Notes: a model not told the origin generated them from the letters alone. Counted from the first letter of the stretch, positions 17,465 to 35,220 are shown. The stretch is DNA of 63,488 nucleotides from Candidatus Timburyella stercoris (GCA_904384255.1 CAJFJP010000001.1:21415-84902); one strand, 5' to 3'. Program-made: numbers and translations.

Positions 17465-17545
17465 TCCTTTCTTTGTTTTTGCCTTTTGGCAACACCAACA
17501 ATATCATATGAGTTCCAGTCAGTCCAGCAAAAATAGCGAGAGTTA

Positions 17546-17704: not shown

Positions 17705-17706
17705 TT

Positions 17707-18063: not shown

Positions 18064-18572
18064 TTTATTTGCCTCCTAAGTAGATAGGCGGTCGCTTAAT
18101 TTATATGGAATAAACGACCGCCTTGCCTATATCAATCGTTTTGTTGTTATCCGATATTTGAACCACGCCATCCCTCGGATACACGGGAACGCATCTTCCG
18201 GTCATGCATTTGACCTCATGGGAATTTCACCCCTCCGTGGTTCTCACGAAGCCGTCCTCCTTTGTTGCGACGGCTCACGGCGGTTTCGCCGCTTCTACGC
18301 TCGACTTTAGGACTGGACGGAAGTATCTTTAATGCCTCTGCCTGTCATGGCCTTCGCTGCGGATGCGCCGCAGCGTCGGAGTCTTGAAGATCACGAACAA
18401 CAGCTTTCATTGCTCATTCGGACATTTGCTCCTGTGGCTTATCCCATTTGAGACAGCAGAGGGAAAGTAAAAAATGCGCTGTACTATTCGATTGTCAAAG
18501 AACACCAGAGGCTAAAGAGAAAGCCCCCTCACTTTCCATGCCGAAAAGTTGAGGAGGCTATGCGCTGATTTT
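18064..18572 (-). other. 509-nt ORF-free, hairpin-dense spacer (candidate structured RNA or decayed gene)
   Basis: No ORF longer than about 21 codons on the operon strand. Several perfect 5-9 bp helices are present (see finding). The strand is assigned only from operon context. Confidence 0.3.
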
Positions 18573-19085
18573 TTAGTTTTCCATTAGATTTTTGAGTTTA
18601 GAGAGGATTTTTCCGATTCTGCGGCTGATATTGGATTGATTCAAACCACATGATTTCGCTATTTCTATCTGTGACATATTTTCAAAAAAGTGTAGCCGCA
18701 TTAGATTTTGCTCATCTTCTGTAAGCAGTAAAAGCGCCCGATGCAGCTTGTCCTGCATGATTTTATTTTCAACCTGCGTGGCAACATCCTCGTTGCGGTC
18801 AATCAAAATATCTTCGCCTTTGAATGCATCTGTTGTGAACATGTCATAGGAGATATCTTTGTTTTTCTTTGATTGCTCATACAAATATTTTTGATGACGC
18901 TTGTCTTTGTAAAAATCCTTATAAACGCTATATGTTACTTCCATTAACATCCCGTGCAGCGGGATAAAGAATTTTTCCGCATAGGGGGAGTTTTTATTTT
19001 CTAAGAGTCGGCAGAGTTCCTCATAGGATATTTCTCTGTAGTTGTTGCCTGATAAAATAAATACTTTCTTTGGTGCATATTTCAC
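18573..19085 (-). CDS. Sigma-70 region-4 / HTH protein (Tn916 Orf7-like regulator)
   Basis: C-terminal LTEDEQNLMRLHFFENMSQIEIAKSCGLNQSNISRRIGKILSKL is a sigma-70 region 4 HTH. GTG at 19085 follows GGAGG by 8 nt, whereas the track's TTG at 19100 overlaps that SD. Confidence 0.6.
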   Translation of the reverse strand: MKYAPKKVFILSGNNYREISYEELCRLLENKNSPYAEKFFIPLHGMLMEVTYSVYKDFYKDKRHQKYLYEQSKKNKDISYDMFTTDAFKGEDILIDRNEDVATQVENKIMQDKLHRALLLLTEDEQNLMRLHFFENMSQIEIAKSCGLNQSNISRRIGKILSKLKNLMEN

Positions 19086-19202
19086 CTGTAGTTCCTCCAA
19101 TCAATCGATTTTGAATTTTTTCAAAACAATTGACTGGAGGCGGGTCACGACAGCCGGTACCCCTCCGATGTTCAACACAAAGTTTTATAGTTGGCGCATA
19201 AT

Positions 19203-19248
19203 GAAAAAAGCCAAATTTACCCCTTAAAAAATTATGGGTAAATTTGGC
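19203..19248 (-). terminator. Rho-independent terminator/attenuator about 100 nt upstream of the sigma-like gene
   Basis: Minus strand: GCCAAATTTACCC-loop-GGGTAAATTTGGC (13 bp) followed by TTTTTTC. Confidence 0.55.
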
Positions 19249-19624
19249 GATACGGTTAAGAGATAGGCTCGGAGGCTCGTCCTTTCTCGGACTTTTCTCT
19301 GTATCTTTATTTTTTGTACAATGATGTTGTCTTGATCGCCGGACAGCAAGTAAGGCAACCCTGACAATTATGTATCGGTCAGCTTTCAAAAGGCATCACT
19401 CCAACCGCACGGCAGCACTGCTATACGGTCAGAGTTGCACTATACGGGGCAATACTGCCACGCCAAACAACTGTATTTCTTATGTGAACACACCTCTGAG
19501 GCTGTTCTTCGCTAAGGGGCAAAACATGTCACCTTCCTTTAAATAGATTTGAAAGGTTTTCGTAATACAACAGCGTTTACCGTTGCAAATATAGAGTTTA
19601 TGTGTTTTATCTTTGTTTTTTGTC

Positions 19625-19945: not shown

Positions 19946-22900
19946 TTAAATTGACGATTTGAAATTGTCCCATTTTGCAGCGACCTGCATTTCAATGTCG
20001 TCTCCAAGCGCCTCAAAATGCTTTTTGCCGCAATGGATTTTTAACTGTTCGCGGGTACGCAGATCAAAGAAGCTGGTGCTGCCTTTCGTTTCCAAAACGA
20101 AATATAACTTTTCCACACCGTTTTTGGTCAGGTATACCGCCCAGTCGGGATTGTAGGTGCCTATCGGCGTCTGAATTTTAAACCGTTCCGGTATTTTGAA
20201 AAACAACTTTACATCGGGATCATTGTCGAGAGCGACGGCAAACGGCTTTTCAATAGTGGCGCTGTCGTACACCACATAATCGTACACGCTTTTGTTCACC
20301 GCGACCGCATTTCGGTCAAGGTTTGCCATAAGTTCTTCCGAATCGAATATTTCCTGTACATAGTAATCTTCACCAGCAAGCCTTTGATAGCTGATGCCGT
20401 CAATATCAAGCTGATAACAGTTGTTTTGAATTACTTCCGTGAGCTGCTCAATGAATGCCTGCGGATTGCGGAGCATTTCTTTTCCTCTGCCGCTCTGCTT
20501 GATAATTTTTAGCACAACCCGTCTGTTGACCAGCGTCTGTTCGCTGATAATCGTCACGACATTCGGAATAGTGATACCTTCATTCTGAATATCCTGACTG
20601 TGGTACTCCCGCGCGGTATGCGTTACGCCGTAGTTTGCGATATCAATATCAGCAGTCTGCGATACAAGCCGCATTTTCGGAATAACGGGCAGTTCTCTGA
20701 AATCTTTCACAGAGTTTTCAATCAGTTCATCGGTATCAATTTGTACCCGATAGGTGGTTTTGTGCTTGATTTTGTTCCACAATTCCATAAATTCAGGCGA
20801 TAAAACAACCTGCTTCTTCAGCTTTACAACCACATCACGGCTGGCATCACGGATCGGCGGCTTGCTATCGGCTTTTCGGATAATACTTTCAAATCGCTGT
20901 CTCGCCGCCTCGTATTTTTGGGGTAAATCAAGCGTTCCGGTTTGCAGCGCGTTTTTCATAGTATCCTTCATCTTGCCGGATTTGCTGATATAGCCCTTTT
21001 GCTCAAAATGCTCGATGATTTCTTTAGCGTCATCATAGGTGATTTCTTTTTCTTCCGTCACGGTTTCGGAATAGGTTATGTCCGTTATGCTTGACAGCTC
21101 TATAATATCCTCCGTCTTGGCTATGACTTCTGAGATTTGCTCTTTTACAGGCTCCAGCTCCGGTGGCAGTTCAACGGTCTTTTCCACTGCGGCCTGCTTG
21201 AGCGATTCCGTGATTTTGCCGTTATCGTCGATATAGCCTTTCATTTCAAAGTGGCTGATGATCTCCTGTGCCTGTGCGGGCGTGACGGTTCTCTCTACCG
21301 TCCGCTTTTCCTCGTAAACCATGCCGGAGAACATACTGATCTGAATCATGCCGAATTTGAGTCCGGTTTCATCTTCGATCTCTTTCTGCAGAGTTTCCGC
21401 AAACTCAGCGAAGCTCTCATTAGAGATGACATGAAGCAGATTGATGTCTTTCTCCTCGATACGATCGCCGCTCTGATCTACACAAAGGCGCAGACCTCTG
21501 CCAATTTTCTGCCGGCAGGTAAAGGTGGACTTTTGATCGATTAGCGTACAGACCTGAAACACATTCGGATTGTCCCAACCTTCTTTCAGCGCAGAGTGCG
21601 ACCAAATGAAACGCAGAGGACAATCAAAGGACAGCAACCATTCTTTATCCTTCATGATGGTGTTGTAGGTATCGTAGTCGGCAATAGTATCGCCTTTGGT
21701 ATCCTTATATGCGCCTTTTTTATCCTGTGAAAAATAACCGTTGTGCGCAGTATGACCGTCGCTGTATTTTGCTTTCAGTTCAGCATATTTCGGACGGTTG
21801 ATCAGATCGTTATAACATTCCTCGAACATCTGGGCATAGATGCCCATGTCACCATCCTCGGTGCGGTACTTCTCCACCTTGTCGATGAAGAACAGGGACA
21901 GCACCTTGATCCCGCGGCTGTTCAGAAGCAGTTCTTTGTCCAGATGGATTTCGATGGTTTTACGGATTTGCTCCCGTTTAATCAAATTCTCGTCGATGTC
22001 ACCGATAGTCTGTCCCAGTTTCAGCACTTCCGTGTTGGAAAACTCAATACACTCTCTGCCGGGCGTACAGTCTATGCCGGAAACCATATAACTGTCATAC
22101 AAGTCCCGCTCGCCGGAGAGGACATACAGGTCGGAGTTTGGTTTTACCGTTATCGTCTTGCGGGCGACCTTGCCGTCCTTTGCTTTGACGTCCATCTGTA
22201 CCTTTGCCTTGAAGCCGTCCTTCTGCGATACTTCCAGCAGCCGGATATATGGCTTGTTAAAATCGTTTTCGGCGGATACGCTGGATACGCAGATCTGCTT
22301 GACTAAGCCCATCTGATAAGCGTCCACAGGCGTTAAGCGGAATACCGTGTTGATTTTTTCTCTGTGGGTCGCCGAGTAGCGCAGAACACACAGAGGATTC
22401 AGGGAGGCGATGGCTTCCTTTGCCTTTGGCGTGTTGTCCACGCTCTGTGGCTCGTCTACGATAACAATGGGATTGGTGTCCTGTATGTACCGCATAGCGG
22501 TTTCGCCGTTCAGTTTATCCTGCGCCTGATTGATGATGTTTTCCGCTTTCTTGAACGCATCAATATTGATGATCATAATCTCAATATTGGCGCTGGTGGC
22601 AAACTGCCGCACATCGGACAACTTGGCGGAATTATAGATAAAATAGCGGTACGGCACATTATCGTACAGGGCGGCAAAGTGGTCATTTGTAATCTCAAAG
22701 GATTTATACACGCCTTCGCGGATCGCCACCGATGGGACAACAATGATGAATTTGGTAAAACCGTACTTGCGGTTTAACTCTAATATCGTTTGGGTGTAGA
22801 CATAGGTTTTTCCCGTGCCGGTTTCCATTTCTACACAGAAGCGTTTATCGTCTATATCATCCGTTAAGGGCAGATTGAACCGCTTTTGTATACCATGCAG

Positions 22901-23089
22901 GTTTTCGAGCATAGCCTTGTTATCGATGAGCTGTGCATTGCCGATTCCGAAATCATTTTGCAAAATGCTGATTTGCTTTTCCTGCATGACGGTAAAAGTG
23001 GATGTTGTCTTTTCCTGACCGGCAAACAGATCCACTACGGCGGCAGTCGCGTCGGATTGATAACCTTGTTTTTTGAATTTTAACTTCAT
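19946..23089 (-). CDS. res: Type III restriction endonuclease, Res subunit (SF2 helicase plus PD-(D/E)xK nuclease)
   Basis: METGTGKTYVY (motif I), IVIVDEPQSV (motif II). The C-terminal YNPDWAVYL...FVLETKGS is a nuclease motif. 1047 aa. The start overlaps the upstream ORF (ATGA). Confidence 0.9.
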   Translation of the reverse strand: MKLKFKKQGYQSDATAAVVDLFAGQEKTTSTFTVMQEKQISILQNDFGIGNAQLIDNKAMLENLHGIQKRFNLPLTDDIDDKRFCVEMETGTGKTYVYTQTILELNRKYGFTKFIIVVPSVAIREGVYKSFEITNDHFAALYDNVPYRYFIYNSAKLSDVRQFATSANIEIMIINIDAFKKAENIINQAQDKLNGETAMRYIQDTNPIVIVDEPQSVDNTPKAKEAIASLNPLCVLRYSATHREKINTVFRLTPVDAYQMGLVKQICVSSVSAENDFNKPYIRLLEVSQKDGFKAKVQMDVKAKDGKVARKTITVKPNSDLYVLSGERDLYDSYMVSGIDCTPGRECIEFSNTEVLKLGQTIGDIDENLIKREQIRKTIEIHLDKELLLNSRGIKVLSLFFIDKVEKYRTEDGDMGIYAQMFEECYNDLINRPKYAELKAKYSDGHTAHNGYFSQDKKGAYKDTKGDTIADYDTYNTIMKDKEWLLSFDCPLRFIWSHSALKEGWDNPNVFQVCTLIDQKSTFTCRQKIGRGLRLCVDQSGDRIEEKDINLLHVISNESFAEFAETLQKEIEDETGLKFGMIQISMFSGMVYEEKRTVERTVTPAQAQEIISHFEMKGYIDDNGKITESLKQAAVEKTVELPPELEPVKEQISEVIAKTEDIIELSSITDITYSETVTEEKEITYDDAKEIIEHFEQKGYISKSGKMKDTMKNALQTGTLDLPQKYEAARQRFESIIRKADSKPPIRDASRDVVVKLKKQVVLSPEFMELWNKIKHKTTYRVQIDTDELIENSVKDFRELPVIPKMRLVSQTADIDIANYGVTHTAREYHSQDIQNEGITIPNVVTIISEQTLVNRRVVLKIIKQSGRGKEMLRNPQAFIEQLTEVIQNNCYQLDIDGISYQRLAGEDYYVQEIFDSEELMANLDRNAVAVNKSVYDYVVYDSATIEKPFAVALDNDPDVKLFFKIPERFKIQTPIGTYNPDWAVYLTKNGVEKLYFVLETKGSTSFFDLRTREQLKIHCGKKHFEALGDDIEMQVAAKWDNFKSSI

Positions 23090-23274
23090 CCGCGCTGCTC
23101 CTTTACTATGGTATCAAAAGCAAAAGATTTCATTTTGCAATCTAAACACCCATAGTCGCTATGTGTTCCTAACTCATACAATTTAACAATCCGCAGGTGT
23201 TTGCAATCCTCCGGTTTACAGGAAGCTTCTATCTTGTTAAATTCTTCTTCTTGCATTTTTTGCATGATAATCAC
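23086..23274 (-). CDS. Mini zinc-ribbon protein (about 59-62 aa) between mod and res
   Basis: Cys pattern C-x4-C-x18-C-x2-C (SCKPEDCK...GCLDCK). Begins 6-15 nt after the mod stop and ends in an ATGA overlap with the res start. The start is either GTG at 23274 or ATG at 23265. Confidence 0.5.
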   Translation of the reverse strand: MIIMQKMQEEEFNKIEASCKPEDCKHLRIVKLYELGTHSDYGCLDCKMKSFAFDTIVKEQRG

Positions 23275-23279
23275 CGCCT

Positions 23280-25181
23280 TTATATCAGCTTTAAATCAAT
23301 TTTTCTATCTCTTAGAACATAGTGTGCATTTCTCATCGCCGATACATCGGCAAAGCAGCTCTCAGCTATGACGATTTTGGCGGGCGCGTATTCCGCTAAC
23401 TGTTCAATGGTTTCAGTGGTGATTCCCGCATCAAGGCAAATCATCAGCAGACTATCCTCGCCCACAGAGTAGGCTTTCACGCCGTCGATTTCCAGCGGCA
23501 GAACCGGATATGTCAGCGGTACGCCCATTTTCAGCATGATTTCATAAACCACATCTATGTCCGTGCGGTCATCCTTGATGCTGTCAATCATATCGTTCAT
23601 GCGGTCAAGCATGATCTGAATATCATCTTCCGCTACGGGCGTTCCGTCCCACAGCTTGATATTGGAGGTATCCAACTTGAACACCTTGAATCCCACGTCG
23701 GGCAGGGGCTTTTCTTCTTCGCCCAGCTTGATTTGCTGATTCGCTTGTTCTGCTTCTGCAAGAATTTTCGCGCCCGCGCGGCGGACGCGCTCTTTGCCGA
23801 TTTCGCAAATGGTTTTGTATCCTGCTTTATAGGCTTCGCTCTTTTCATCGCATAGTTCGGGAAGCTGCACACAGATAAAGCGGCGGTTCCCGCCGTCCTC
23901 AGCGTTTAACTGCATCACAGCGTGGGCGGTGGTAGCAGAACCGGAGAAAAAGTCAAGTACGATGTCGTTGTTGTTTATACTTGTTGCAGTTGCAGCTTTA
24001 ATAAAATATTTAATAAAGCCAACAGGCTTCGGAAATCCGAAAACTTTATTTTCAAAAAGTTCTGTAATTTCTTTCGTACCGTCTTGAGTCATACCGATGT
24101 CATCCGGCAACTTTGTACTTACCGGAATAAAACCAAAACTGTCGCCTGCCTTTGCCATATCGTCATCTTTGAAATAACGAAACGCAGGCTTTGAAATGTT
24201 CAAAAAATCATAATCGTCCGGAAAAACGATTCTATTTTCCGCGTAATATTGCTCAAATGTTTCTTTCGTTACAGCCCAAGTTCGGTTAGGATTAGCAGGA
24301 TATTCTTTCCCTGTTTTAGGGTTTATCATAGTAAAATTGCTATTAGGTCTTTCAAGCGCACTTCTTTGTGTTGTTAAATCATGAATTCTCCACGGTCTGC
24401 CCGGTAAATCGTCAGTTTCAAAGTATTTTCTCGTTCCACCTTCTAGACAGGCACGAAAATCTATAGATTTTGCATAGCACAAAATCCATTCATAGTCCTG
24501 CGATACACCAAAAGGCACATCGGATTTTGCTGTTCTTTTTCGCCATGGAAATTGTCCAGCAAAATTTTCTTCGCCTAATGTTTCATCACACAATTTTTTT
24601 AGATTGGTGACTTCATTATCATCTATACTTATAAAAATCACCCCATCGTCCCGCAAGAGATTTGCTGCTAAACGCAGACGGGGATACATCATGTTCAGCC
24701 AATTGGTGTGGTATCTGCCCATTGTTTCGGGGTTGGATTTGGTTGACTGCTGGGTGACTTCTTTATACCGCGCCATCGGGTCGGCAAAATCATCCTCGTA
24801 CACAAAATCATTGCCGGTATTATAGGGCGGATCAATATAGATCATCTTTACCTTGCGATAATAGGATGTTTGCAGTAGCTTGAGGACTTCTAAGTTATCA
24901 CCCTCTATGTAGAGGTTTTGAGTGTCATTAAAGTTTACACCTTCATCAGGGCAGGGGCGTAGCGTACCCGTTGACCGCTTCTGCGCAAGCCGCAGGCTTT
25001 CGGATTTCCCGTGCCATTCGAACTTGTACTTTTCAAAATCGTTGTCGATATACTCACCACAAAGCGACAGCAACTTGTCAATGTCTAATTTGCCCTCCGC
25101 AAAGCATTGCGGAAATACCGCCTTTAGTTTTTCTTTTTCTGTCTGTTCTATATCCATGCTCATTCCGTCCAGCTTATCCAT
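23280..25181 (-). CDS. mod: Type III DNA methyltransferase, Mod subunit (beta-class N6-adenine)
   Basis: IYIDPPYNTGNDF (motif IV) lies upstream of VLDFFSGSATTAHAV (motif I). ATG at 25181 follows GGAGGA; I prefer it to the track start at 25202. Confidence 0.9.
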   Translation of the reverse strand: MDKLDGMSMDIEQTEKEKLKAVFPQCFAEGKLDIDKLLSLCGEYIDNDFEKYKFEWHGKSESLRLAQKRSTGTLRPCPDEGVNFNDTQNLYIEGDNLEVLKLLQTSYYRKVKMIYIDPPYNTGNDFVYEDDFADPMARYKEVTQQSTKSNPETMGRYHTNWLNMMYPRLRLAANLLRDDGVIFISIDDNEVTNLKKLCDETLGEENFAGQFPWRKRTAKSDVPFGVSQDYEWILCYAKSIDFRACLEGGTRKYFETDDLPGRPWRIHDLTTQRSALERPNSNFTMINPKTGKEYPANPNRTWAVTKETFEQYYAENRIVFPDDYDFLNISKPAFRYFKDDDMAKAGDSFGFIPVSTKLPDDIGMTQDGTKEITELFENKVFGFPKPVGFIKYFIKAATATSINNNDIVLDFFSGSATTAHAVMQLNAEDGGNRRFICVQLPELCDEKSEAYKAGYKTICEIGKERVRRAGAKILAEAEQANQQIKLGEEEKPLPDVGFKVFKLDTSNIKLWDGTPVAEDDIQIMLDRMNDMIDSIKDDRTDIDVVYEIMLKMGVPLTYPVLPLEIDGVKAYSVGEDSLLMICLDAGITTETIEQLAEYAPAKIVIAESCFADVSAMRNAHYVLRDRKIDLKLI

Positions 25182-25350
25182 TGTTTTCATCCTCCATTGC
25201 AAAGTGCGAAATACGCCCGTATATTTCGTATGAGTATTTCAATAATTTGTAAAATTTTTCATCTAACTTATACTGTCTAATTGGAATTGCAAAACATTTT
25301 CCTGACATTTTAATTGTTCCGCCGGATTTACCAAATACACCTTGAGGGTC

Positions 25351-25803
25351 TTATGCATTTATTGTTTCTTCGCTTGGCATATTTGTAGAGATAACATACT
25401 TTGATATTAAAAGATTTGATTTTGGTAAACCCTTAATTGTTATAGGCGAATTATTAGTATGAAGAAAATCCATCAACATCTTTTTTTCAGCTACCGATAG
25501 TTTGTCAACAAAGTTCCATTGATCCTCAAGGTCTCGTTTTAATTGTAATTCTTTTAGTTGCTTATCTTCAATTATTGAGCGGCGCTTTGACCATATTGCT
25601 TTACCTATAAATCGTACAGCCTCTATTACGATAAATCCCACACAGAAAACTAAAACAGTATATAGATTTTTACCTAAACGTGTGTATAACATCGTTTCTT
25701 CTGGAGTAATTGCTACTATAATCAATGCAAAAGTAAGCGATATAGCACTTGGGAGAAGGTGTTTTTCCAAAAAAACTTTTAATACTTCCCAAAATTTCTC
25801 CAA
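25351..25803 (-). CDS. Small 2-TM membrane protein, SieB-like (superinfection exclusion protein B-like) candidate effector
   Basis: Two N-terminal TM helices, then a soluble tail (..DKLSVAEKKMLMDFLHTNNSPITI..). TTG start directly abuts the SNF2 TAA, with GGAGGG 7 nt upstream. Very AT-rich. The family call is from memory of SieB-family layout only. Confidence 0.45.
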   Translation of the reverse strand: MEKFWEVLKVFLEKHLLPSAISLTFALIIVAITPEETMLYTRLGKNLYTVLVFCVGFIVIEAVRFIGKAIWSKRRSIIEDKQLKELQLKRDLEDQWNFVDKLSVAEKKMLMDFLHTNNSPITIKGLPKSNLLISKYVISTNMPSEETINA

Positions 25804-28449
25804 TTATTTTCCCTCCACTTTTATCATAAACTCTCTTATCGCTCTTGCGGTCGGCTTCTCTTTTCTAAGGAATTCCTCTATATCCTTTTCCAGCTTTAAG
25901 TCAAGCTGCATTTCCTCAAAAAATTGTGATTCCTGCTTTTGCATAAACTCTTTATGCACCGTGTTGATTTGCTTTTGCAGCTTTAGCCGGGTTAGCCTGT
26001 CATCGGCGGCAGCAAGTTCGTTTTCCATTGTACTGACCTGCTTTTCCAATTCATCCACGGAACGGCTCAGTGCAGCTTTGCTTTTTGCTGTTTGCAGCTT
26101 CATTTGGTCAATTTTTTCCGCCTGCAGCGGGGTGAACTGCTCCGTTTCCTTTTTCAAAAACTCGTCTGTATTGAGATAACGGTCAAACTCATGGTATTTA
26201 CTTGACAATCTGAGCCAATGCATGACGCGGCGTTCGCCCTCCGTATAGCTGAGAACAGGCAGTTCGAAGATTCTCCGGCATTCTTCGTCCGACAGTATTT
26301 TTCCGGTATCGGTTTTGCCAACCAGTACGGCATATTCGTTGAAACTTGGGGACATTTCAATCGAATACAGCGCGATTTGACAGGATTCAATGTCCGAATC
26401 TACCACAATCTTTCCGTCAGTAGCGCAGTCCAACTGATTTAGAATGCTCCGCCCTAAAATGCTTGAAAAGGTGATTCGTCCGTATTTCGGCTTGAAATCG
26501 GAAGCCATTCCGTATTTTTTCTGACTCTTGTATTTTCGGCTGCCGCCGTTCGACCAATAATAGAACAGTATGGGAAGCTCAGTATAATTCATTGCCGTTA
26601 CCGTTTGTTCGGTATCGTCGATTTCAAAATAGCAATCGGTATGGCTGGCATTATATTGCTCAAAAAAGAATTTTACGACTTCCCATAGCTGAGAATTGTA
26701 TTCCTTTGCTTTTTCCTCCGCGTACTTTGGGGTAATTTTCACCTTGTTGGCAAGTTCTCTCGTAAAAGTTGTAAATAGGACATTTTCAGCGTTAGCCACA
26801 AGCTGTCGATTTTCTTCTTCATGTGCATCGAGCGTCGCCAGATAATCGTTCTGTATTTGTTCTTTTGTCCGCGCCTTTTCATTGAGTTCGCTAATGGCGA
26901 CAGTCAAGTCATCGGTAAAGCCGCCTATGACCGGGTCGGACACGCCGAACACGCCGTCTGATACAAGGAATCGTTTATTGACCAATTCCAGTTTGCGAAC
27001 ATCTGCAAAGTTATTTTTATTGATAAAAGCCACCGCAAGTACATCATTGGGCTGATCCAGCCGATGACAGCGGTCGATACGCTGTTCCATTTTTAGTGTA
27101 TTGTACAGTAGGTCATAGTTTATTACAAGTGCCGATTCCTGCAAGTTAAAGCCCCTTGCACCGTTGTCGGTGGAGAGAAGAATTTCGCCGTGTTCCTTAA
27201 ACGCTTTGATTGCAGAGTAATCGGCAGAGCCGTTATATACCGTCGTTTGATATTTCTCTTTCAGCAGACCGTATAAAACTTTTTGCGTTTCTACGCTTTC
27301 GGTAAAAATGACCGCCTTTTTATTCGCGCCGAGCTTTCGGAGGAGCGGCAGGACTTTCTGTAAATATTTGAGCAGGAGCTTTGCCTTTTCATCGGTTTCT
27401 ACGCTTTCGGCAAGGGCTTCCATTTCTCTGAATTCGTTCAGCTCGCCCTTGGAGTTCGGCATCCGTTCAAGGCGTTTGATGATTCCTTTTATCGTTTGTA
27501 AAATGGCAGCCGTAGAGGAACTTTGCAAACCAAGCAAGCGCAGGGCGAGGTCGTAGCTGCTCATTTCGGGAAACGCGACTTTATTTTCCTTATTCACATA
27601 AGTGTATAGTAAGTCGTATAGCTTTCGTTCTTTGGCAGACGGCGTATATTCCAGCGTGATAAGGATACGTTCAGGGATTTTGGCGTATTGCTTTGCCTGC
27701 GAACGCAGGGTGCGAAAACAGTATTTACTGACCCGTTCAGCCAATTCCGGGTAGTTTTCCGGCTTTCTCAGATACCGCTTCATATAGGTTTCAGCGTCGG
27801 GCAACACGGTTTCATCGATAAAATACATAAGACCGTACAAGTCCATGATGTTTTTTTCGATAGGTGTTCCAGTCAGTAGGATTTTGAAAGAATCCTCTGC
27901 AATTTCTTTTAGAATTTTAGCCTGCTTGCTGTCTTCGGTACTGACAGAAGACAAAATATTGGCTTCCTCAAACACAGTCAAACTCCACTTAATTTGTTTA
28001 GCCGCTTCTTGCTGATCAGTTAAAAAATCATAGGTGGTTAATATGACAGCGTTCTGTTCAAAGGCATTCGTGTTTTCACCGGAAGAGTTTTGCTCCCAAT
28101 CCTCTCGACTGGCCAGCACAACATAAGGGATCGTATAATAACGATCGAGCGTGTCGATCCACTGCATAAGCAAATCAGCATTTGGAACGGAAATCAAAAT
28201 ATTACTCATTCCTTCCAGCCATCTCTGCACAACAACAAGCATAGCTTCATGCGTTTTACCTATACCGGCTTCATCGCACAGAATGACTCCCTTTTGGTAA
28301 GGGGAGCGCATAGCAAAACTAGCCGCTGCAACCTGGAAGGGATAAATTTGAATATCAGAAGATGCAAAAACAGGAATAAGCTTGTCCGCTTTAGGCAGGT
28401 TTTCCAAAAGCCTTGCCGTGTAGTAAAAATGAAACGGCGTCTTCTGCAT
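25804..28449 (-). CDS. SNF2-family helicase with an uncharacterised C-terminal half of about 340 aa ending in a coiled coil
   Basis: LCDEAGIGKTHEA (I), VFEEAN (II), LTGTPIEKN (III), GFNLQESALVINYD...QRIDRCHRLDQ (V/VI). Residues from about 540 to 881 contain no motif I recognise. Confidence 0.85.
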   Translation of the reverse strand: MQKTPFHFYYTARLLENLPKADKLIPVFASSDIQIYPFQVAAASFAMRSPYQKGVILCDEAGIGKTHEAMLVVVQRWLEGMSNILISVPNADLLMQWIDTLDRYYTIPYVVLASREDWEQNSSGENTNAFEQNAVILTTYDFLTDQQEAAKQIKWSLTVFEEANILSSVSTEDSKQAKILKEIAEDSFKILLTGTPIEKNIMDLYGLMYFIDETVLPDAETYMKRYLRKPENYPELAERVSKYCFRTLRSQAKQYAKIPERILITLEYTPSAKERKLYDLLYTYVNKENKVAFPEMSSYDLALRLLGLQSSSTAAILQTIKGIIKRLERMPNSKGELNEFREMEALAESVETDEKAKLLLKYLQKVLPLLRKLGANKKAVIFTESVETQKVLYGLLKEKYQTTVYNGSADYSAIKAFKEHGEILLSTDNGARGFNLQESALVINYDLLYNTLKMEQRIDRCHRLDQPNDVLAVAFINKNNFADVRKLELVNKRFLVSDGVFGVSDPVIGGFTDDLTVAISELNEKARTKEQIQNDYLATLDAHEEENRQLVANAENVLFTTFTRELANKVKITPKYAEEKAKEYNSQLWEVVKFFFEQYNASHTDCYFEIDDTEQTVTAMNYTELPILFYYWSNGGSRKYKSQKKYGMASDFKPKYGRITFSSILGRSILNQLDCATDGKIVVDSDIESCQIALYSIEMSPSFNEYAVLVGKTDTGKILSDEECRRIFELPVLSYTEGERRVMHWLRLSSKYHEFDRYLNTDEFLKKETEQFTPLQAEKIDQMKLQTAKSKAALSRSVDELEKQVSTMENELAAADDRLTRLKLQKQINTVHKEFMQKQESQFFEEMQLDLKLEKDIEEFLRKEKPTARAIREFMIKVEGK

Positions 28450-28476
28450 TTGCTTTTCTTCCTTTCGTCAGTCTGT

Positions 28477-28689
28477 TTATTCTTCGTCTGTATCAATAAA
28501 CTCGCAAATATCATCCAAAGTACAGTCCAAGACTTTACAGATGCGTCCGAGGACTTCGATTGTCACACTTTCACTATTATTGAGCCTTCGTATTGAACTT
28601 GTACTGATCGAAGCTTTTTCCATTAAATCTTTCTTTTTCATATCTTTGTCGATTAGGAGCTTCCAAAGCTTCTTATAACTGATTTTCAT
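28477..28689 (-). CDS. XRE/Cro-C1 family HTH regulator (70 aa)
   Basis: KKKDLMEKASISTSSIRRLNNSESVTIEVLGRICKVLDCTLDDI is a typical HTH_3/HTH_26 pattern. First gene of the SNF2 operon. Confidence 0.75.
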   Translation of the reverse strand: MKISYKKLWKLLIDKDMKKKDLMEKASISTSSIRRLNNSESVTIEVLGRICKVLDCTLDDICEFIDTDEE

Positions 28690-28733
28690 TTCAGCACCTC
28701 GTTCAGTAATATCCGTAAAACAATTTTCGTAAT

Positions 28734-28762
28734 ATTATAGCATAATTCTTGCTTATTTTCAA
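28734..28762 (-). promoter_or_regulatory. Near-consensus sigma-A promoter of the HTH-SNF2-SieB-like operon
   Basis: Minus strand TTGAAA-17 nt-TATAAT, 45 nt upstream of the HTH start. Palindrome ATATGC-n6-GCATAT (28769-28786) lies just upstream of the -35 and may be an operator. Confidence 0.6.
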
Positions 28763-28855
28763 TATTCAATATGCTAAAAAGCATATCTTTAAAATCAAGT
28801 TAGCCTCTTTTCTTTCTGCTGTACTCTCTCTTAAAGTGAGTCGTTCAAGGGAGTT

Positions 28856-28918: not shown

Positions 28919-29173
28919 TCAAAGCAGATAATACCGATTAGAGGTTGCGCTGCCATTGTCGCGGAAGTAAGGCTCTTTTCGTATCAGCTGTGCTTTTTCA
29001 AGATCTTTGATTGCTCGCTTGACCGTGCTTCGGGAAACTGACAGATCCTTTGCAATCGTGTTGAGTCCCGGCCAAGTCTTTCGTTCCTTATCCATCCGGT
29101 CGTGGAGATAGATATACACAAGCTTTGCCCGATGCGGCAGCTCCATGCGATAGAGATGATCAAGCCTGCCCAT
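28919..29173 (-). CDS. Winged-helix DNA-binding protein
   Basis: AKLVYIYLHDRMDKERKTWPGLNTIAKDLSVSRSTVKRAIKDLEKAQLI. ATG at 29173 follows GAGGT by 8 nt. Confidence 0.6.
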   Translation of the reverse strand: MGRLDHLYRMELPHRAKLVYIYLHDRMDKERKTWPGLNTIAKDLSVSRSTVKRAIKDLEKAQLIRKEPYFRDNGSATSNRYYLL

Positions 29174-31112
29174 CACTTTTTACCTCGGCTTTCTGTTCGG
29201 CAGGCACAGGCGTTTCCGGTCGGCGTGTTTTTGGCTCTATTTGTAGAGATGTACCTCCGCTTCGCTTATCCTGCATATGGTACGGCGGTCGATTCTTTTC
29301 GCTCATAGGTTGTTCCTGACCGCCTGTGACCGTATCGCCCTGTGGAGCAGACGGCTCTATTAAGTCTGGACGGTATTTCCTAATAATGCCGTCTATAATG
29401 ATTTTCTTCTCTGCATATTTCACCTTCCTATTGCCCTGATCTGGGACTGTATAAGGATGTTGTTCATCGAACTTAATGCCCCAATTGAAAAACAGTTTCA
29501 GTTTTACCTTCATGGGATAAAAGCCCGTTTTCATAACAACAAACTGTCCTTTAGGCATGGATTTCAGTTCATCCGGTGTCATAAGCGGTCGTTCAATCAT
29601 CTGTAAGGATTCGGACGGATCGTTTTTGCTTCGACTGACCGATCCTGACATGACCGTTCGGCTGCCGAGGGCTTTGGACAGTACCTCTGCCGAGCTTGAT
29701 TGGGGAGCGAAACCTCCGAAAATAGTGAGCTGCGTGTTGTCAATGATAATCTCTGCGCCTTCCTTGCCGTAATTCTTTTCTAATTGACTAAACGATTGAA
29801 TAATCGGTACGATCTGCAGGCGTCTTGAGCGGGATGCTGAGAACATCATCTCCGCTGACTCTATTTTCGGCAGTGTTCCATACTCATCGCAGAAGAACAC
29901 ACATCGGTTTTTCAGCTTTCCGCCGTTCTCATCGGCAACGGCAAGAATTTCACGATATAGCTGCTGTATAATCAGCGAGATCATGAAGAAGGTTGCCGGA
30001 TTTTCTTCCGGCATAATGATGAACAGTGCCGACTTCTCCTTACAGAATTTCTCGGCGTCAACCTCGGTATCAAAACAGAGGATTTGTTCCAGCTCCGAAT
30101 CAAGAAATGAGTTCAAGCGGGAGAGAGCTGTCGACATGACAGAGGCCATTGACTGCTCTGCCGTATTCAGTGCGGCTCCGGCAAACCATTTCGCCTTGTG
30201 GTCATTCGGCAATAATTCCATAAGTTGCTGAAACTGGTTCTTGCCCTTTTTTCCGGAAGGCGCGAGCAACTCTTGAATAATCTTAAACACTGAAACAATG
30301 TGCCGCTGCTCCGGTTTGCAGAACTCCGCTACCAGTAGAATCGTTGCTGTAAGGAGTCCTTCTGCCGCATCATAGAAATAGGCGTTCTGTCCAAAGGAAG
30401 CCGCGTCCATTCCCGATAGGATGATGGTCTTCGAAATGATTTTGGCGTACTTTTCACACCGCGCCTTGTAGACCAGCTTGTCAGGATTTGCCTGATACAA
30501 ATCCATATATTTGTTGACGAGGTGCAGAAGATTGTTGCCGTTGCTCCTTGTGGGATTTCTCAGATCAATGACCGATACATGATAGCCATATTGCTGCACG
30601 ATTTTCCCATAGTTTCGCATGATATCACCTTTGGTATCGGTTGACAGGAATGACATCCCTGAAGCGCAGGCATACTCGATGCATGGGTACAGCCAATAGG
30701 CGGTTTTACCAACACCCGCCGCACCGATCATTAAAGCATGGACATCGCCGGTATCAATCATCGCTGTCGTATTGCCAGTGCATCCTACTACAATTCCCTG
30801 TGGCAGAGCTTCCTCTGGTTTTTCTTTTTGATTCTTCCGTTTGAATAGGCGCTTTTTTGTGATGCAGGTCACAGTCGGTGTTTGACCTTTAGCAGCTTGC
30901 TTTCTCCATTTCTCGGGTGTAAATGGAATGTGCTTGTAGGTCTTTTTGATTTCCTGCCTGGTTGCCCAGCGAGCTGTGCCATGTTGGCCATCACCGACTG
31001 TACGGCTTTTAATATGATTCAGACTGTAGATGTGGGCGAGAAAGGTCACGCCGCCGAGAACGGCAAACATCACAGTGCCTACCACAATCAATAAAGTAAT
31101 GTTGCCCGTCAT
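29160..31112 (-). CDS. Type IV coupling protein (VirD4/TraG-like, Firmicute ICE type)
   Basis: N-terminal TM helix, Walker A GAAGVGKT, Walker B-like VFFCDEYG. 650 aa. Confidence 0.9.
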   Translation of the reverse strand: MTGNITLLIVVGTVMFAVLGGVTFLAHIYSLNHIKSRTVGDGQHGTARWATRQEIKKTYKHIPFTPEKWRKQAAKGQTPTVTCITKKRLFKRKNQKEKPEEALPQGIVVGCTGNTTAMIDTGDVHALMIGAAGVGKTAYWLYPCIEYACASGMSFLSTDTKGDIMRNYGKIVQQYGYHVSVIDLRNPTRSNGNNLLHLVNKYMDLYQANPDKLVYKARCEKYAKIISKTIILSGMDAASFGQNAYFYDAAEGLLTATILLVAEFCKPEQRHIVSVFKIIQELLAPSGKKGKNQFQQLMELLPNDHKAKWFAGAALNTAEQSMASVMSTALSRLNSFLDSELEQILCFDTEVDAEKFCKEKSALFIIMPEENPATFFMISLIIQQLYREILAVADENGGKLKNRCVFFCDEYGTLPKIESAEMMFSASRSRRLQIVPIIQSFSQLEKNYGKEGAEIIIDNTQLTIFGGFAPQSSSAEVLSKALGSRTVMSGSVSRSKNDPSESLQMIERPLMTPDELKSMPKGQFVVMKTGFYPMKVKLKLFFNWGIKFDEQHPYTVPDQGNRKVKYAEKKIIIDGIIRKYRPDLIEPSAPQGDTVTGGQEQPMSEKNRPPYHMQDKRSGGTSLQIEPKTRRPETPVPAEQKAEVKSDGQA

Positions 31113-31172
31113 AAGGCAGCACGCTTTCCGAATTTACTTCATCACTCCTTTATCTTTGATTTTGATTCTTTC

Positions 31173-32096
31173 TCAAATAATCTGTTGAAAAATACATTCT
31201 GTTTCCTCCAATTCTGTTGGATATAATAAATCCTCGTTCCAGTCCTTATGGATTGGTACGAGGATTTCATGTTGGATGCCCTTTATAAAAAGAGCATTTG
31301 AGGTTCGTTTATTGGCACTCTGTCCGGCTTCATCGTTATCGCGGCAGAGATAAACGGAACTGATATTGCGATAATCTTTCATCATCTGCCACAGCACATG
31401 ATCGGACACGCCGCAGGATGCAGCATAGTTGTGCTTTTGCCAACCATTCTTATGCATCGAGATAAATGAGAGCATATCTATCGGCGCTTCAAATAAGAAC
31501 AGCTTATTATCTGTTCCTTGCCAGTGGAAGCTGTACTCCGGCAAACCGCTTTCCACATTTCCTTTAAAGGTACTCTCCGAACCAGTTCCGCGCTTGTGCG
31601 CATGACGAGGAACACCGTATTTATCAAAACCAACAAATACCGCGTTGTGATAATCTGCCGATTCATAAATCATTCCTTTGCTCACAAAAGCATATATTAC
31701 CTCGCGGCTGATACCTCTGCGGTTTATGAGGTAAGCATAAACTCTGCGCATATTCTCATTTTTCGGCGGCAGTCCAAAGGGCTTTGGTGTTTTTTGGGGT
31801 ATTGGCGGTGATGCCGACAGTGTTCCTCCACCTTCACCGAGCAAATATTCCATCGCTTCGGGATAGTTCTTGTTATAGAACCGTCTGACAAAATCAACGG
31901 CATCGCCGCCAACCCGTTCGTATTGATGAAACCATAGGTTTCCTCGAATAGTGACCTTCTGCGAGCCGTCCCTCCATTCTAATTCTTTGCCGGAACGTTT
32001 GAGCGTTTCGCCCTGTCTGCGTAGCAGTTCGGCGATGTCTGTCTTTCTGGCCTGTTCCTTTTGCTCATCTGTAAAGTGGATATATCTTGTTGACAT
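31173..32096 (-). CDS. Toprim domain protein (DUF3991/TraC-primase-like)
   Basis: LFLFEAPIDMLSF and YLCRDNDEAGQ Toprim motifs. ATG at 32096 follows AAAGGAG. Confidence 0.75.
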   Translation of the reverse strand: MSTRYIHFTDEQKEQARKTDIAELLRRQGETLKRSGKELEWRDGSQKVTIRGNLWFHQYERVGGDAVDFVRRFYNKNYPEAMEYLLGEGGGTLSASPPIPQKTPKPFGLPPKNENMRRVYAYLINRRGISREVIYAFVSKGMIYESADYHNAVFVGFDKYGVPRHAHKRGTGSESTFKGNVESGLPEYSFHWQGTDNKLFLFEAPIDMLSFISMHKNGWQKHNYAASCGVSDHVLWQMMKDYRNISSVYLCRDNDEAGQSANKRTSNALFIKGIQHEILVPIHKDWNEDLLYPTELEETECIFQQII

Positions 32097-32295
32097 AAAG
32101 GCTCCTTTCGTAAATTTCAAGTTGATAATTCCAGAAATCTGATCACACTTGGCTTTGAGATCAAATGGTCGTATAATGCGTTCATACTACAGCAAATGCT
32201 AAGAAGAAGTGGTGATCAGGTTATGTTTCATGATAATGATAAAATCTAATTATGCTGTATCAATAATAGCCTGTGAATAAGCTCCACAAGCTGTT

Positions 32296-35220
32296 TTACT
32301 GCTTGATCCCCAGCGCCTGATTCTTTTCTTCAATCTTCCGACGTAGCTTGCGGTCGATGATAATCCCGTCTTTGCCCTTGCGTTCATCTTCCAGACGATT
32401 CTGTATCATCTGGGAGATGTGATGCAGAAGCCGAAGCGCCCCCATCGCCGCTGTCCAGTTTCGGTTACCGCGGATACTGTGCAGGAGTTGTACGGCATAT
32501 TGGTTGCCGTGTTCAGCGGAAGCAGTTAGCCAGCGGATAGCCTGCTCGTAATCTCGTTCTACATCCTTGCCATAGAGATATAGTTTACCGAGCTGGTATT
32601 CCGCATAGTCATCTCCTTGTTCAGCGGCCAGCCGGAACAGATGAATTGCTTTTGAAATATCTTTGAAGCCTTCCTCGGTCAGCCGGATTTTTCCGGCAAG
32701 GTAGGCGGCGTGGGAATTTTCTTTTTCTGCGGCGTTTTCCAGATGGAAAAGTGCTTTTTCAATATCCTGCGGAATTACCTCACCACGATACAACAGCTTT
32801 CCCATGAGATACTCTGCAGGCGTGAAACCCTTATCTGCGGACTGCATCAGAAGTTCTATCGATTTCGGAATATCCTGCAACAAGATTGTTCCGTCCAGAT
32901 AGGCTTTACCAAGGGTGTATGCAGCACATTCGTTTCCATCCTCTGCTACTTTTGAAAGCAGATCTGTTCCACGCCCTATGTTCTGTTCGGTTTCTTCGCC
33001 GAGCAGGAGCGTTTTGCCCAGAAGATATTCGGCGGCGCTGTTTTCTTGTTCCACTGCTTTTTCCAGCCATGCCAGCGCATATATCGGATTTTTAGGAATA
33101 TCCTCACCCTTGAGAAACAGTTTACCGAGGGCGTACTGTGCATAGGCGTGTTCGTTTTGTGCGGCGGTAATGAAATAGTCGATCGCCGTATAGGAATTAT
33201 GTTCCGCAAAATCCTTGTTGAGATACAGCCTGCCGAGACCATACCGGGCGTCATCGTTATCCAGTTCTGCCGCTTTCTCAAAGTATTCCTTTGCACGAAT
33301 CAGATTTTTCTCGGTACCTATTCCGGTCAGATTCATCTGTCCGAGACGGTAGTACAGCCTATCATCCGCCATGCTCTGCTCGATGGAAAGAAAACCGTTG
33401 TATGCCATCGTATACCATTTGGCAGATTCGCTCTTGTCCCGCGCTGTGCCGATCCCGTCTTTATACATCCGTCCCAACTCATACATGGCATAAGCATTTG
33501 GTTTTTCCTCATGGTTCGCTGCCAGTTTATAAAGAGAGAATGCCATCGCGTCATTTTGCTCTACACCTTGACCGCGCAGATAGAGACTGCCGAGAGAATA
33601 TGCGGCAAAAGGATTAGTTTCGATGACCGCTTTCTTATACCATTCTGCAGCTTTCGTGTAGTCCTGCTCCACTCCGTATCCGAATGCGTATAGCTTTCCG
33701 ATCCGATATTGGAAGTAATCTTTCTTTTTTTCTGTCTGTTCTTTGGAGGTAAAAGCAGCAAATGCTTTCCTAAACCACTCCTGTGCTTTTTCTTCATCCT
33801 TATCACATCCAATTCCCAACAGATGCATTCTACCGAGGTCGTGCATCGCAAAACCGTTTCCGCGCCTTGCTTCCGCTGCCATCAGTTTAAGAGCATATGT
33901 GAAATCAGAAGGCGAAGTTTTGGTGCCGTAAAGACAATTTTTCGCCTCCTTGTATTCGTCCGTCCACCAAGTCTTTTTACTGCCGCCGTAATAGGAAGAT
34001 TCCAGCATATCCGATTCGACAGGTTCGCTGTCGGTACTGTCCTGATCTTCGTCCTCCGCATATTTTGGTGCAGGGATATCATCATCAGTGGTTTCCTTAT
34101 CCATTACACGCTCTGCCGTAATGTTTAACGCCTCCTGAATTACCGCGTTTTTTATGGATTTGAACTCCTTGCTTTGCGACAGCGGAATCCTCTCCGGCAA
34201 AGCCTCAGTGTAGGTCTGAATCACTTCTTCACGCTTTTGATACCACAGGCCATAGAGAGCGGCGATTCGCTTATCCTTTGCGATCTCATCCACAATGGAA
34301 TCAATGATATCCTTGACATCTGCTTTGAGATACCCGTACTGCTTTTTGCCACCTGTCTTGGATAACCGGCCGGCAAGCTTCAACAGCAGATTTTCCACAG
34401 CGGGATTGTCGTAGGCTCCGGTATTGATTTTCTCAACCATTTCTCCGATGAGCTTTCGGCTTTCAGCCTTCAGCGCATCCCGATGCTCCGTCTGTTTTTC
34501 ATAAACGCAGAGCAGGTCTTGGGCAAAGATGTCTTTTGCAAAGGAAGAGCGCAGATGCTTCACTCCCTGCTTGGTGAGGTAGCCTTCATTCTCAATGGTT
34601 GAGTAGGCAACGAGATGCACATGGGGATGATGACTTTCATTATGGAAGGCGGCGAACCAGCGCAGATGCTCCATTGGGATTTTCAGATTTTTAGCCAGAG
34701 TTTCCGTCTGTGCCCGCAGCATATCTCGCCATCGGTGTCCATCATCGAAGCCAAGCCTTTCGGCGTCCTCTCGCCGCAGGGACAGGATTGCCGTCCACAC
34801 ATTTCCCTGATGAAGATTCAGTTCTTCTGAAATACTGGCAAGCTTGATTTCCACGCCGTCATCTGTGAACAGTCCATGTGAACCGAACCGCTGCGCCCTC
34901 GGACGGGTAGCAATGTAGTCGGCATAGGTCTTGCTTGTCATCATTTCTTGTGCGTTATCCTCCAGCGCACGGGTAATAAATTCCGAAGCTGCTCCCACCG
35001 TCAGCGTATGGATATAATCCTCGTACTCATGCATATCCTTTGAGTCGGGAAAATCACGGAGGATTTTTTCAATCAAAACTTTCTGATTTGCTGATACCGG
35101 AAGATACTTTTTGGAATCATCTATTTTATCTACGCCTTCACGGGTAGCGATATATTTCAGATACCCTCCGGCCTTATCGCCAGGGCGGATGAATTTGAAC
35201 TTGGTAATCAGCTTCGCCAC
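32296..35220 (-). CDS. MOB relaxase fused to a long Sel1/SLR repeat array
   Basis: N-terminal relaxase with a histidine cluster FHNESHHPHVHLVAYS. The C-terminal 560 aa or so are made of repeated ..A..W..KAA..G...A.Y.LG..Y..G.G... Sel1-type units (at least 10). Confidence 0.8.
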   Translation of the reverse strand: MAKLITKFKFIRPGDKAGGYLKYIATREGVDKIDDSKKYLPVSANQKVLIEKILRDFPDSKDMHEYEDYIHTLTVGAASEFITRALEDNAQEMMTSKTYADYIATRPRAQRFGSHGLFTDDGVEIKLASISEELNLHQGNVWTAILSLRREDAERLGFDDGHRWRDMLRAQTETLAKNLKIPMEHLRWFAAFHNESHHPHVHLVAYSTIENEGYLTKQGVKHLRSSFAKDIFAQDLLCVYEKQTEHRDALKAESRKLIGEMVEKINTGAYDNPAVENLLLKLAGRLSKTGGKKQYGYLKADVKDIIDSIVDEIAKDKRIAALYGLWYQKREEVIQTYTEALPERIPLSQSKEFKSIKNAVIQEALNITAERVMDKETTDDDIPAPKYAEDEDQDSTDSEPVESDMLESSYYGGSKKTWWTDEYKEAKNCLYGTKTSPSDFTYALKLMAAEARRGNGFAMHDLGRMHLLGIGCDKDEEKAQEWFRKAFAAFTSKEQTEKKKDYFQYRIGKLYAFGYGVEQDYTKAAEWYKKAVIETNPFAAYSLGSLYLRGQGVEQNDAMAFSLYKLAANHEEKPNAYAMYELGRMYKDGIGTARDKSESAKWYTMAYNGFLSIEQSMADDRLYYRLGQMNLTGIGTEKNLIRAKEYFEKAAELDNDDARYGLGRLYLNKDFAEHNSYTAIDYFITAAQNEHAYAQYALGKLFLKGEDIPKNPIYALAWLEKAVEQENSAAEYLLGKTLLLGEETEQNIGRGTDLLSKVAEDGNECAAYTLGKAYLDGTILLQDIPKSIELLMQSADKGFTPAEYLMGKLLYRGEVIPQDIEKALFHLENAAEKENSHAAYLAGKIRLTEEGFKDISKAIHLFRLAAEQGDDYAEYQLGKLYLYGKDVERDYEQAIRWLTASAEHGNQYAVQLLHSIRGNRNWTAAMGALRLLHHISQMIQNRLEDERKGKDGIIIDRKLRRKIEEKNQALGIKQ

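Follow-up and report, generated by a model that had tools for sequence, protein, structure and literature searches.

Type III restriction–modification (R-M) systems, of which EcoP15I and EcoP1I are the classical examples, are encoded by two genes. The Mod subunit methylates an asymmetric site, which becomes hemimethylated, and the Mod2Res complex cleaves unmethylated DNA in an ATP-dependent reaction that requires two unmethylated sites in inverse orientation and one-dimensional sliding. In the present study, we analyzed a 63,488-nucleotide stretch of DNA from Candidatus Timburyella stercoris (GCA_904384255.1 CAJFJP010000001.1:21415-84902), hereafter called the “window”, in which Type III Mod and Res genes lie downstream of genes for a small helix-turn-helix (HTH) protein, an SNF2-family ATPase (SNF2), and a SieB-like membrane protein. 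We read this locus as a variant Type III R-M system with a DrmD/RapA-like helicase, an HTH controller, and nested cargo that includes a broken SieB-like gene, all forming one ~9.1-kb operon (28786-19639, minus strand) that is carried as cargo of an integrative and conjugative element (ICE); we hold this combined reading with moderate confidence. In the open literature, with subscription journals lying outside the scope of the search, no description of a triad of SNF2 with Type III Mod and Res was found.

How are SNF2 helicases used in the described systems? RapA itself recycles RNA polymerase. The C-terminal domain of RapA and BrxHII comprises a beta-sheet into which a pair of long coiled-coil helices is inserted ahead of the final strand, and the BREX type 3 and BR systems use such a RapA-like SNF2, namely BrxHII (PMC12839542). 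In DISARM class I, the deletion of drmD together with drmMI nearly abolished the protection against one phage (10.1101/2021.12.28.474362). The SNF2 protein ArmA is essential for defense by ARMADA (10.1101/2025.09.15.676423, PMC13463889), and the SNF2 helicase of ARMADA II is required for full defense (PMC13463889). The IetHAS system combines IetAS with an acquired DrmD-like SNF2, IetH, which is needed for full defense and in which both motifs, Walker A and DEAH, are essential (PMC13069673). With regard to the membrane protein, the SieB protein of P22 aborts the lytic growth of superinfecting phages (PMC10883804).

The window operon begins with a promoter of the sigma-70 type, TTGAAA-17-TATAAT, whose -10 element is extended by TG (28734-28762, minus strand), which is the top match (11/12) in a scan of 19.5-29.3 kb and likely drives the whole operon. 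An ATATGC-n6-GCATAT inverted repeat (28769-28786), read directly from the sequence, abuts the -35 element. Six genes follow on the minus strand: the HTH gene (28477-28689; 70 residues, Cro/C1-type, Pfam HTH_26 with E=1e-18), the SNF2 gene (25804-28449; 881 residues, Pfam SNF2-rel_dom and Helicase_C), the SieB-family membrane-protein gene (25174-25803), the Mod gene (23280-25202), a Cys-rich open reading frame (ORF) of 62 residues (23086-23274), and the Res gene (19946-23089). The SieB-family gene is interrupted by a TAA codon at 25351-25353, and its first part forms an ORF of 150 residues (25351-25803) with a TTG start. The HTH and SNF2 genes are separated by 27 nt. The TAA of the SNF2 gene directly abuts the TTG of the 150-residue ORF and a GGAGGG sequence lies 7 nt 5′ of this TTG, which indicates translational coupling between the two; the Mod gene, the 62-residue ORF, and the Res gene are connected by overlapping or short junctions.

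When the minus strand was scanned from 28762, no strong terminator was found before an intrinsic terminator at 19675-19639, downstream of Res, which likely marks the end of the operon. It has a 16-bp stem with 10 G-C pairs followed by a T-run, as compared to stems of 5-6 pairs at the other minus-strand candidates between 28762 and 19600. Since the six genes lie between a single strong promoter and a single strong terminator, and since their junctions overlap or abut, we regard them as a single operon; their organization is operon-like. The initial annotation, which covered 25351-28762, had correctly described the three minus-strand ORFs, their spacing and coupled junction, the near-consensus promoter, the palindrome, and the SNF2 identity of the large protein. 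However, it took these three genes as one complete unit, a claim that the terminator scan does not support. A megablast search of plasmids with the 9.2-kb operon returned no match.

The Mod and Res proteins have the features of the Type III subunits. Mod is an N6-adenine methyltransferase that matches the PADLOC MTase_III model with 657 bits over residues 8-636 and contains the DPPY motif, within IDPPYNTG in the translation. Its true start is likely the ATG at 25181: in the identical locus L001, the gene is called from the equivalent start and matches Pfam N6_N4_Mtase. Res matches the PADLOC REase_III model with 1036 bits, and Pfam ResIII and RE_endonuc are found in L001; the protein joins an ATPase of the superfamily 2 (SF2) helicase type to a PD-(D/E)xK endonuclease at its C-terminus. 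Mod precedes Res on the same (minus) strand, and the locus thereby resembles EcoP15I and EcoP1I, in which a DPPY-containing Mod is encoded upstream of a co-directional Res with SF2 and PD-(D/E)xK domains. It differs from the classical two-gene systems in its conserved RapA-like SNF2, which usually heads the operon, in its frequent HTH gene, and in its two cargo junctions.

How closely is SNF2 linked to Mod and Res? SNF2 has more than 1000 homologues, many of which are ~885 residues long, share 59-83% identity, and come mostly from gut Clostridia. We compared two samples, one of 80 loci chosen by SNF2 (47-82% identity) and searched with the window proteins, and the other of 80 loci chosen by Res and drawn independently from metagenomes. 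In the SNF2-based sample, 51 of the 52 loci whose downstream flank extends over 4 kb or more have a Mod homologue, and 40 of the 44 loci whose downstream flank reaches 8 kb or more have both Mod and Res co-directionally downstream. In the four exceptions (L018, L039, L064, and L083), Mod or Res is partial or missing. The distance from SNF2 to Mod ranges from -13 to +3307 nt and that from Mod to Res ranges from 18 to 3729 nt. The loci L005, L006, L031, L037, and L040 are examples in which SNF2 overlaps or abuts Mod, with a gap of -13 to +11 nt.

In the Res-based sample, SNF2 is upstream in 19 of the 28 loci whose upstream flank reaches 8 kb or more, and it is downstream of Res in four of the remaining nine (L135, L137, L150, and L151), as well as in three loci with shorter flanks (L136, L140, and L153). 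In all of these loci with a downstream SNF2, the gene order is permuted to Mod-Res-SNF2 or Res-Mod-SNF2 and the three genes still stand together. This permutation with an intact triad provides independent evidence for a functional linkage. Moreover, two annotated genome records share the layout. In Monoglobus pectinilyticus (L183, NZ_OY725736.1), the order is HTH, “DEAD/DEAH box helicase”, RhuM, methyltransferase, transposase, second methyltransferase, small hypothetical ORF, and Res. In the Planctomycetes plasmid pK2D_1 (L184, CP036351.1), it is HTH, “RapA”, two inserts, methyltransferase, one insert, and “Type III restriction enzyme, res subunit”, and the identities to the window proteins are 27% for SNF2, 39% for Mod, and 49% for Res. 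Because Monoglobus and pK2D_1 share this layout, the SNF2-Mod-Res triad is old and phylum-spanning. SNF2 is thus a conserved partner of Mod and Res across many loci.

Next, we analyzed the identity and the architecture of SNF2. Its top PADLOC model is DrmD (PDLC02619, 306 bits). The NCBIfam models DISARM_DrmD_b (306.7 bits, curated cut-off 950) and DISARM_DrmD (116.7 bits, cut-off 610) both score below their cut-offs, and we therefore rejected an equivalence with DrmD: SNF2 is a relative and not a member of that family. The ZorD models match the SNF2 core alone, with up to 105 bits. The protein consists of the motor (residues ~30-570), alpha+beta domains (574-760), a coiled-coil hairpin (761-863), and a terminal strand (867-880). 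When the AlphaFold2 (AF2) model of the whole protein (pLDDT, the predicted local distance difference test score, of 76) was compared by Foldseek, the best match was Escherichia coli RapA (E ~1e-24, ~1000 aligned columns). The AF2 model of residues 570-881 (pLDDT 88) contains a beta-rich region (607-743), two helices (761-814 and 818-863), and a strand (867-880), and RapA is its sole significant structural match in the PDB (Foldseek, E=7e-4); in a PDB sequence search with SNF2, the matches were confined to the motor. The initial annotation could name no motif in the last ~340 residues with their heptad-rich tail. Because of the structural match to RapA and the published description of the RapA/BrxHII domain, this part can now be assigned to a RapA-type C-terminal module, with the heptad-rich tail as its coiled-coil insert. 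The predicted structures thus show a RapA/BrxHII-like architecture, in which the restriction endonuclease-like nature of the first alpha+beta domain is putative. Inspection of the conserved C-terminal residues revealed no D..(D/E)xK motif, and the structural search with the C-terminal part gave no significant match to a nuclease. There is no N-terminal Tudor domain in SNF2, as motif I is located at residues 59-66 and ~35 low-confidence residues precede the motor.

In SNF2, Walker A is conserved. Motif II is FEEANI in the window protein (residues 160-165, 27955-27972) and EEA[N/T/S] across the window clade, with both Glu residues invariant in an alignment of 34 sequences, while relatives at 35-45% identity retain DEAD, DEAT, or DEAH.

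These results allow a comparison with the described SNF2-containing systems. The window locus resembles DISARM class I in that the DrmD models are the nearest, and in that SNF2 and an adenine methylase precede a nuclease-bearing SF2 helicase. It differs in having a Type III Mod (PF01555) in place of DrmMI and a Type III Res, and in its missing partners: in a scan of the ten largest other ORFs of the window, DrmA, DrmB (DUF1998), DrmC (PLD), ZorA, and ZorB gave no match. This agrees with the initial annotation, which had noted the absence of the DISARM and Zorya partners, and the ZorA/ZorB membrane motor, which in Zorya type I occurs with ZorC and ZorD, is accordingly missing among the large ORFs scanned. 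The similarity to ARMADA, BREX type 3, BR, and IetHAS lies in the SNF2 core, the alpha+beta domains, and the coiled-coil insert before the last strand, and the ARMADA and BREX-type systems also pair SNF2 with an N6-adenine methylase. Unlike these systems, the window locus has no Tudor domain, PglX-like methylase, YprA/DUF1998 helicase, PglZ, DUF499 ATPase, or IetAS protease, and the partners of its SNF2 are Mod and Res.

The HTH gene recurs at the same place in related loci. Its homologues head the operon directly 5′ of SNF2 in at least 10 loci, and an annotated HTH gene precedes SNF2 in the Monoglobus and Planctomycetes records. In eight related loci, with HTH proteins 72-94% identical, a palindrome with ATAT...ATAT ends is found at the same position, and in the alignment of these loci (A5) the palindrome, the -35 element, the TG, and the -10 element remain in register despite the diverged flanks. 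The controller (C) proteins of R-M systems are likewise small HTH proteins, encoded first in the operon and with a palindrome at their own promoter; they bind the C-box and delay restriction through autoregulation. The window HTH has the layout of such a protein: it is small, stands at the head of the R-M operon, and has a palindrome at its own promoter. By layout, HTH is therefore a putative C-protein-like controller of the R-M operon, for which the binding is likewise putative. Its identification as VanU was rejected, as the NCBIfam score was 65.9 bits against a cut-off of 150. In three loci, the arrangement behind the HTH gene is a sign of helicase loss: in L103, HTH lies ~140 bp upstream of Mod and SNF2 was not detected; in L104 (3792-3932), a 47-residue C-terminal SNF2 remnant follows HTH; and in L165, ~2.5 kb of non-SNF2 sequence lies between HTH and Mod.

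In contrast to the conserved triad, the two junctions that flank Mod turn over their contents. We collected the ORFs of at least 100 residues that lie between SNF2 and Mod or between Mod and Res in ~50 loci; the equivalent slots in the window are 25203-25803 and 23090-23279, respectively. The 116 slot proteins fall into 67 clusters. Four loci (L004, L010, L011, and L056) carry a pair of a short prokaryotic Argonaute (pAgo; PADLOC pAgo_II, 640 bits) and Aga_SIR2, and the slots also hold RhuM/PDC-S05, 23S_rRNA_IVP, SLFN_AlbA_2, AAA_21/AAA ATPases, and many uncharacterized proteins. One further slot protein appears TIR-like, as judged from its N-terminal sequence alone. Even among close relatives, the contents of the first slot differ: it is empty in L005, L006, and L095, holds pAgo and SIR2 in L004 and 23S_rRNA_IVP in L007, and holds a SieB-like gene in L175-L179. 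Because of this variation, we regard the SieB-like gene as an optional, exchangeable insert. When all of the slot ORFs were searched with the hidden Markov model of the SieB-like family, nothing scored below E=0.02, and the slot proteins were rejected as hidden SieB relatives. A rule that couples SNF2 to membrane effectors was also rejected, as transmembrane (TM) segments, by a crude hydropathy measure, occur in roughly a third of the proteins of either slot, which appears to be background.

The Mod–Res slot of the window is occupied by the 62-residue ORF, which overlaps the Res start by 4 nt. By tblastn, it was found in L001 and L002 alone, which are copies of the same element. The ORF has a C-x4-C ... 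C-x2-C arrangement, possibly a zinc ribbon, and L016 and L025 carry other small Cys-rich ORFs in the same slot.

The SieB-like gene in the first slot is a truncated copy. The database protein P0002, which is 99% identical, has 209 residues and a Gln at codon 151, where the window has the TAA. The window frame remains open for 58 codons past this TAA (25177-25350), through 25174, and encodes ...QYKLDEKFYKLLKYSYEIYGRISHF..., the best-conserved motif of the family; with its original stop, the gene would run 8 nt into Mod, whose ATG lies at 25181. In the identical locus L001, a separate ORF of 44 residues is called at 25174-25308, which corresponds to the orphaned C-terminal motif. Since the TAA allele is present in 59 contigs, the truncation is real and not a sequencing error. 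The window copy, having lost its C-terminal motif, is probably inactive or altered. The initial annotation was thus right about the 150-residue ORF and its two TM helices, and missed that they belong to a truncated copy of a 209-residue gene.

The relationship to SieB emerges at the level of the family. The Pfam SieB model gives E=0.005 and 16.9 bits with the 150-residue protein and 16.6 bits with P0002, both under the gathering threshold of 26; PHROGs returned weak SieB-type matches that span the full 150-residue protein, PADLOC gave no hit with it, and a word-indexed homologue search found the protein itself and P0002 alone. An exhaustive phmmer search recovered 213 SieB-like relatives, mostly of 180-220 residues. 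Among 45 relatives, 23 match Pfam SieB at E<=0.01, with a best E value of 2.4e-6, and several database relatives carry a precomputed PF14163 assignment. These profile matches show that the small gene represents a distant branch of the SieB superfamily, and the resemblance noted initially holds for the family, while the window protein itself stays below the gathering threshold. Two hydrophobic windows of 19 residues start at residues 14 and 42, and this N-terminal TM layout is conserved (alignment A1). The family also shares a charged linker, an LE.LW..VD.LS...L..FL..NN.PI segment, and a C-terminal YKL...LLKYS.E.YG.ISHF motif, which reads YKL..LLKYSYE.YGRISHF in the window frame. The gene is AT-rich, as had been noticed, with a GC content of 0.315-0.32 as compared to 0.42-0.47 for SNF2. 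A search of a phage database with P0002 gave no match.

The closest clade of the SieB-like family (37-51% identity) lies behind SNF2 in L085/L097, L175/L176, L178, and L180-L182, behind a DEAD+UvrD helicase in L084, and behind a DUF4391 gene in L089. The distant relatives (26-30% identity) are lone genes, found in conjugative elements (L087 and L090/L091) and after prophage tail genes (L092-L094). In L087, L090, and L091, which are Clostridial conjugative elements, the lone gene stands on the opposite strand between the relaxase and a NikA-like gene, a recurring accessory position. The lambdoid-phage SieB (PF14163) is likewise small with N-terminal TM helices, about half of the relatives match its profile, and the distant relatives occupy accessory positions in prophages and conjugative elements. 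Unlike the lambdoid SieB, the window clade resides inside Clostridia R-M operons and has its own C-terminal motif, and the window copy is truncated.

The surroundings of the operon are those of a mobile element, in agreement with the ICE cargo location that was initially assigned. A conjugation module at ~13400-19400 (minus strand), called upstream, encodes a MobL relaxase with Sel1 repeats, a DUF3991/Toprim protein, and a TraG-like coupling protein, and the region at 29160-35220, called downstream, encodes a sigma-70 region-4 protein, a PemK toxin, and serine recombinases. Since the conjugation module and the recombinase and PemK genes flank the operon, it sits in the cargo of an ICE. Two other proteins were noticed in the window: a 593-residue ATPase at 8037-9818 (plus strand) with a PADLOC mad3 match of 190 bits and weaker AriA/OLD-type matches, and a 611-residue protein at 39170-41005 (minus strand) with weak mad8 and HerA matches. 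Both are probably generic ABC or conjugation ATPases.

We propose the following scheme for the window operon. HTH would probably bind the predicted operator palindrome that abuts the -35 element, and may thereby set the timing and the level of expression after the transfer of the element, as C-proteins do for R-M systems. The R-M enzyme would restrict unmethylated incoming DNA. Our best guess for SNF2, by analogy with RapA, is a translocase or remodeller of double-stranded DNA that supports the restriction. In this role, SNF2 could clear the DNA of RNA polymerase or further bound proteins that block the one-dimensional sliding of Type III enzymes. Alternatively, it could recycle stalled Mod2Res, as RapA does for RNA polymerase. 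The full-length SieB-like proteins are probably separate, membrane-acting factors for abortive infection or exclusion.

Several observations weigh against this reading. In five Res-sampled loci (L103, L129, L160, L171, and L174), SNF2 was not found within 10 kb, and it is thus dispensable in some lineages. In the Res-based sample, the SNF2 identity spans 40-62% at a similar Res identity (~69%), and SNF2 therefore either evolves faster or is swapped between systems. The EEAN sequence in place of DExH could make the SNF2 ATPase slow or switch-like, and the proposed role in roadblock removal or recycling rests on the analogy with RapA. The TAA allele of the SieB-like gene is the commoner one, with 59 contigs (near-identical copies of the element) against 1. 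Finally, the closest SieB-like clade overlaps the Mod start by 8 nt in all seven contexts. The decoupled identities and the Res loci lacking SNF2 would fit a helicase that is independent of the R-M genes, i.e., a separate defense, anti-defense, or element-maintenance helicase that is co-inherited through the clustering of defense genes, and RapA-like SNF2 helicases are indeed promiscuous modules across several systems. However, SNF2 has no effector domain of its own and its C-terminal region matched RapA rather than a nuclease. In addition, its adjacency to Mod and Res is maintained over 27-82% identity, across three phyla, and through permutation, while the slot contents turn over, and its start or stop codons overlap Mod in several loci. 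We consider an independent SNF2 quite unlikely.

The SieB-like gene gives rise to two other explanations. The initial annotation proposed an autonomous abortive-infection or exclusion module made up of HTH, SNF2, and the SieB-like protein, in which a DNA-tracking sensor is coupled to a membrane effector and the R-M genes are mere neighbors. The tight coupling of the SNF2 stop and the SieB-like start in the window, L085, L176, and L181 fits this proposal. So does the position of SNF2, which in five of the seven closest-clade contexts, the window included, is the gene directly upstream. However, the SieB-like gene is absent from all 80 SNF2-sampled loci and present in one of the 80 Res-sampled loci, while SNF2 retains Mod and Res in 40 of 44, and the pair of SNF2 and SieB-like genes was never found without R-M genes. 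The clade also follows the DEAD+UvrD or DUF4391 gene and always precedes Mod, the window gene is truncated, and no terminator separates it from Mod. The self-contained defense pair is thus largely refuted by co-occurrence, a check that the initial annotation itself had named, and we judge it very improbable. The fixed 8-nt overlap with Mod is more specific than expected for random cargo and leaves room for a functional coupling of the SieB-like protein to the R-M system. PrrC, an anticodon nuclease whose gene lies within the Type I R-M operon EcoprrI, offers a precedent: a complex of SNF2, Mod, and Res could silence the SieB-like protein, and the inhibition of restriction by a phage would then free it to collapse the membrane. 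The overlap persists across 37-51% identity, and the SieB-like protein appears to evolve fast, as its identity to the nearest relatives is 48-51% beside 75-81% for SNF2 and 91% for Res, which would be expected of an arms-race protein. The likeness to PrrC–EcoprrI extends to a cargo gene nested in an R-M operon and stops at the many different genes that occupy the slot; the coupling is putative. Against such a guard stand the dozens of unrelated genes in the slot, including complete pairs of pAgo and SIR2, the distant relatives, which stand alone in prophages and conjugative elements, and the absence of the SieB-like gene from most loci of the SNF2/R-M family. Two-gene pAgo and SIR2 systems work autonomously elsewhere. 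A guard of this type seems unlikely, and we prefer the reading of a Type III R-M variant with exchangeable cargo.

It is doubtful, at the present stage, that SNF2 acts as a genuine third subunit in a distinct class of Type III systems that spans phyla, where it would translocate on or actively remodel invading DNA for Mod2Res, and that the SieB-like clade is a PrrC-like membrane fail-safe triggered by the inhibition of this complex. If this were the case, the locus would be the simplest tractable system for the function of the DrmD/BrxHII/ArmA-type helicases in DISARM, BREX-3, and ARMADA. RapA-like SNF2 proteins are needed for defense in those systems and in IetHAS, and Type III R-M is the DNA-sliding restriction enzyme with the best-understood mechanism; a three-protein Type III system is thus a possible test bed for the contribution of these helicases. 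The window also illustrates that tight gene spacing alone is poor evidence for a dedicated two-gene system. Many of the slot proteins could be new defense genes. The junctions that flank Mod are hot spots for the swapping of defense genes within an operon, and they are useful for finding such genes and for tracing how immunity is shuffled by gut Clostridia through their mobile elements.

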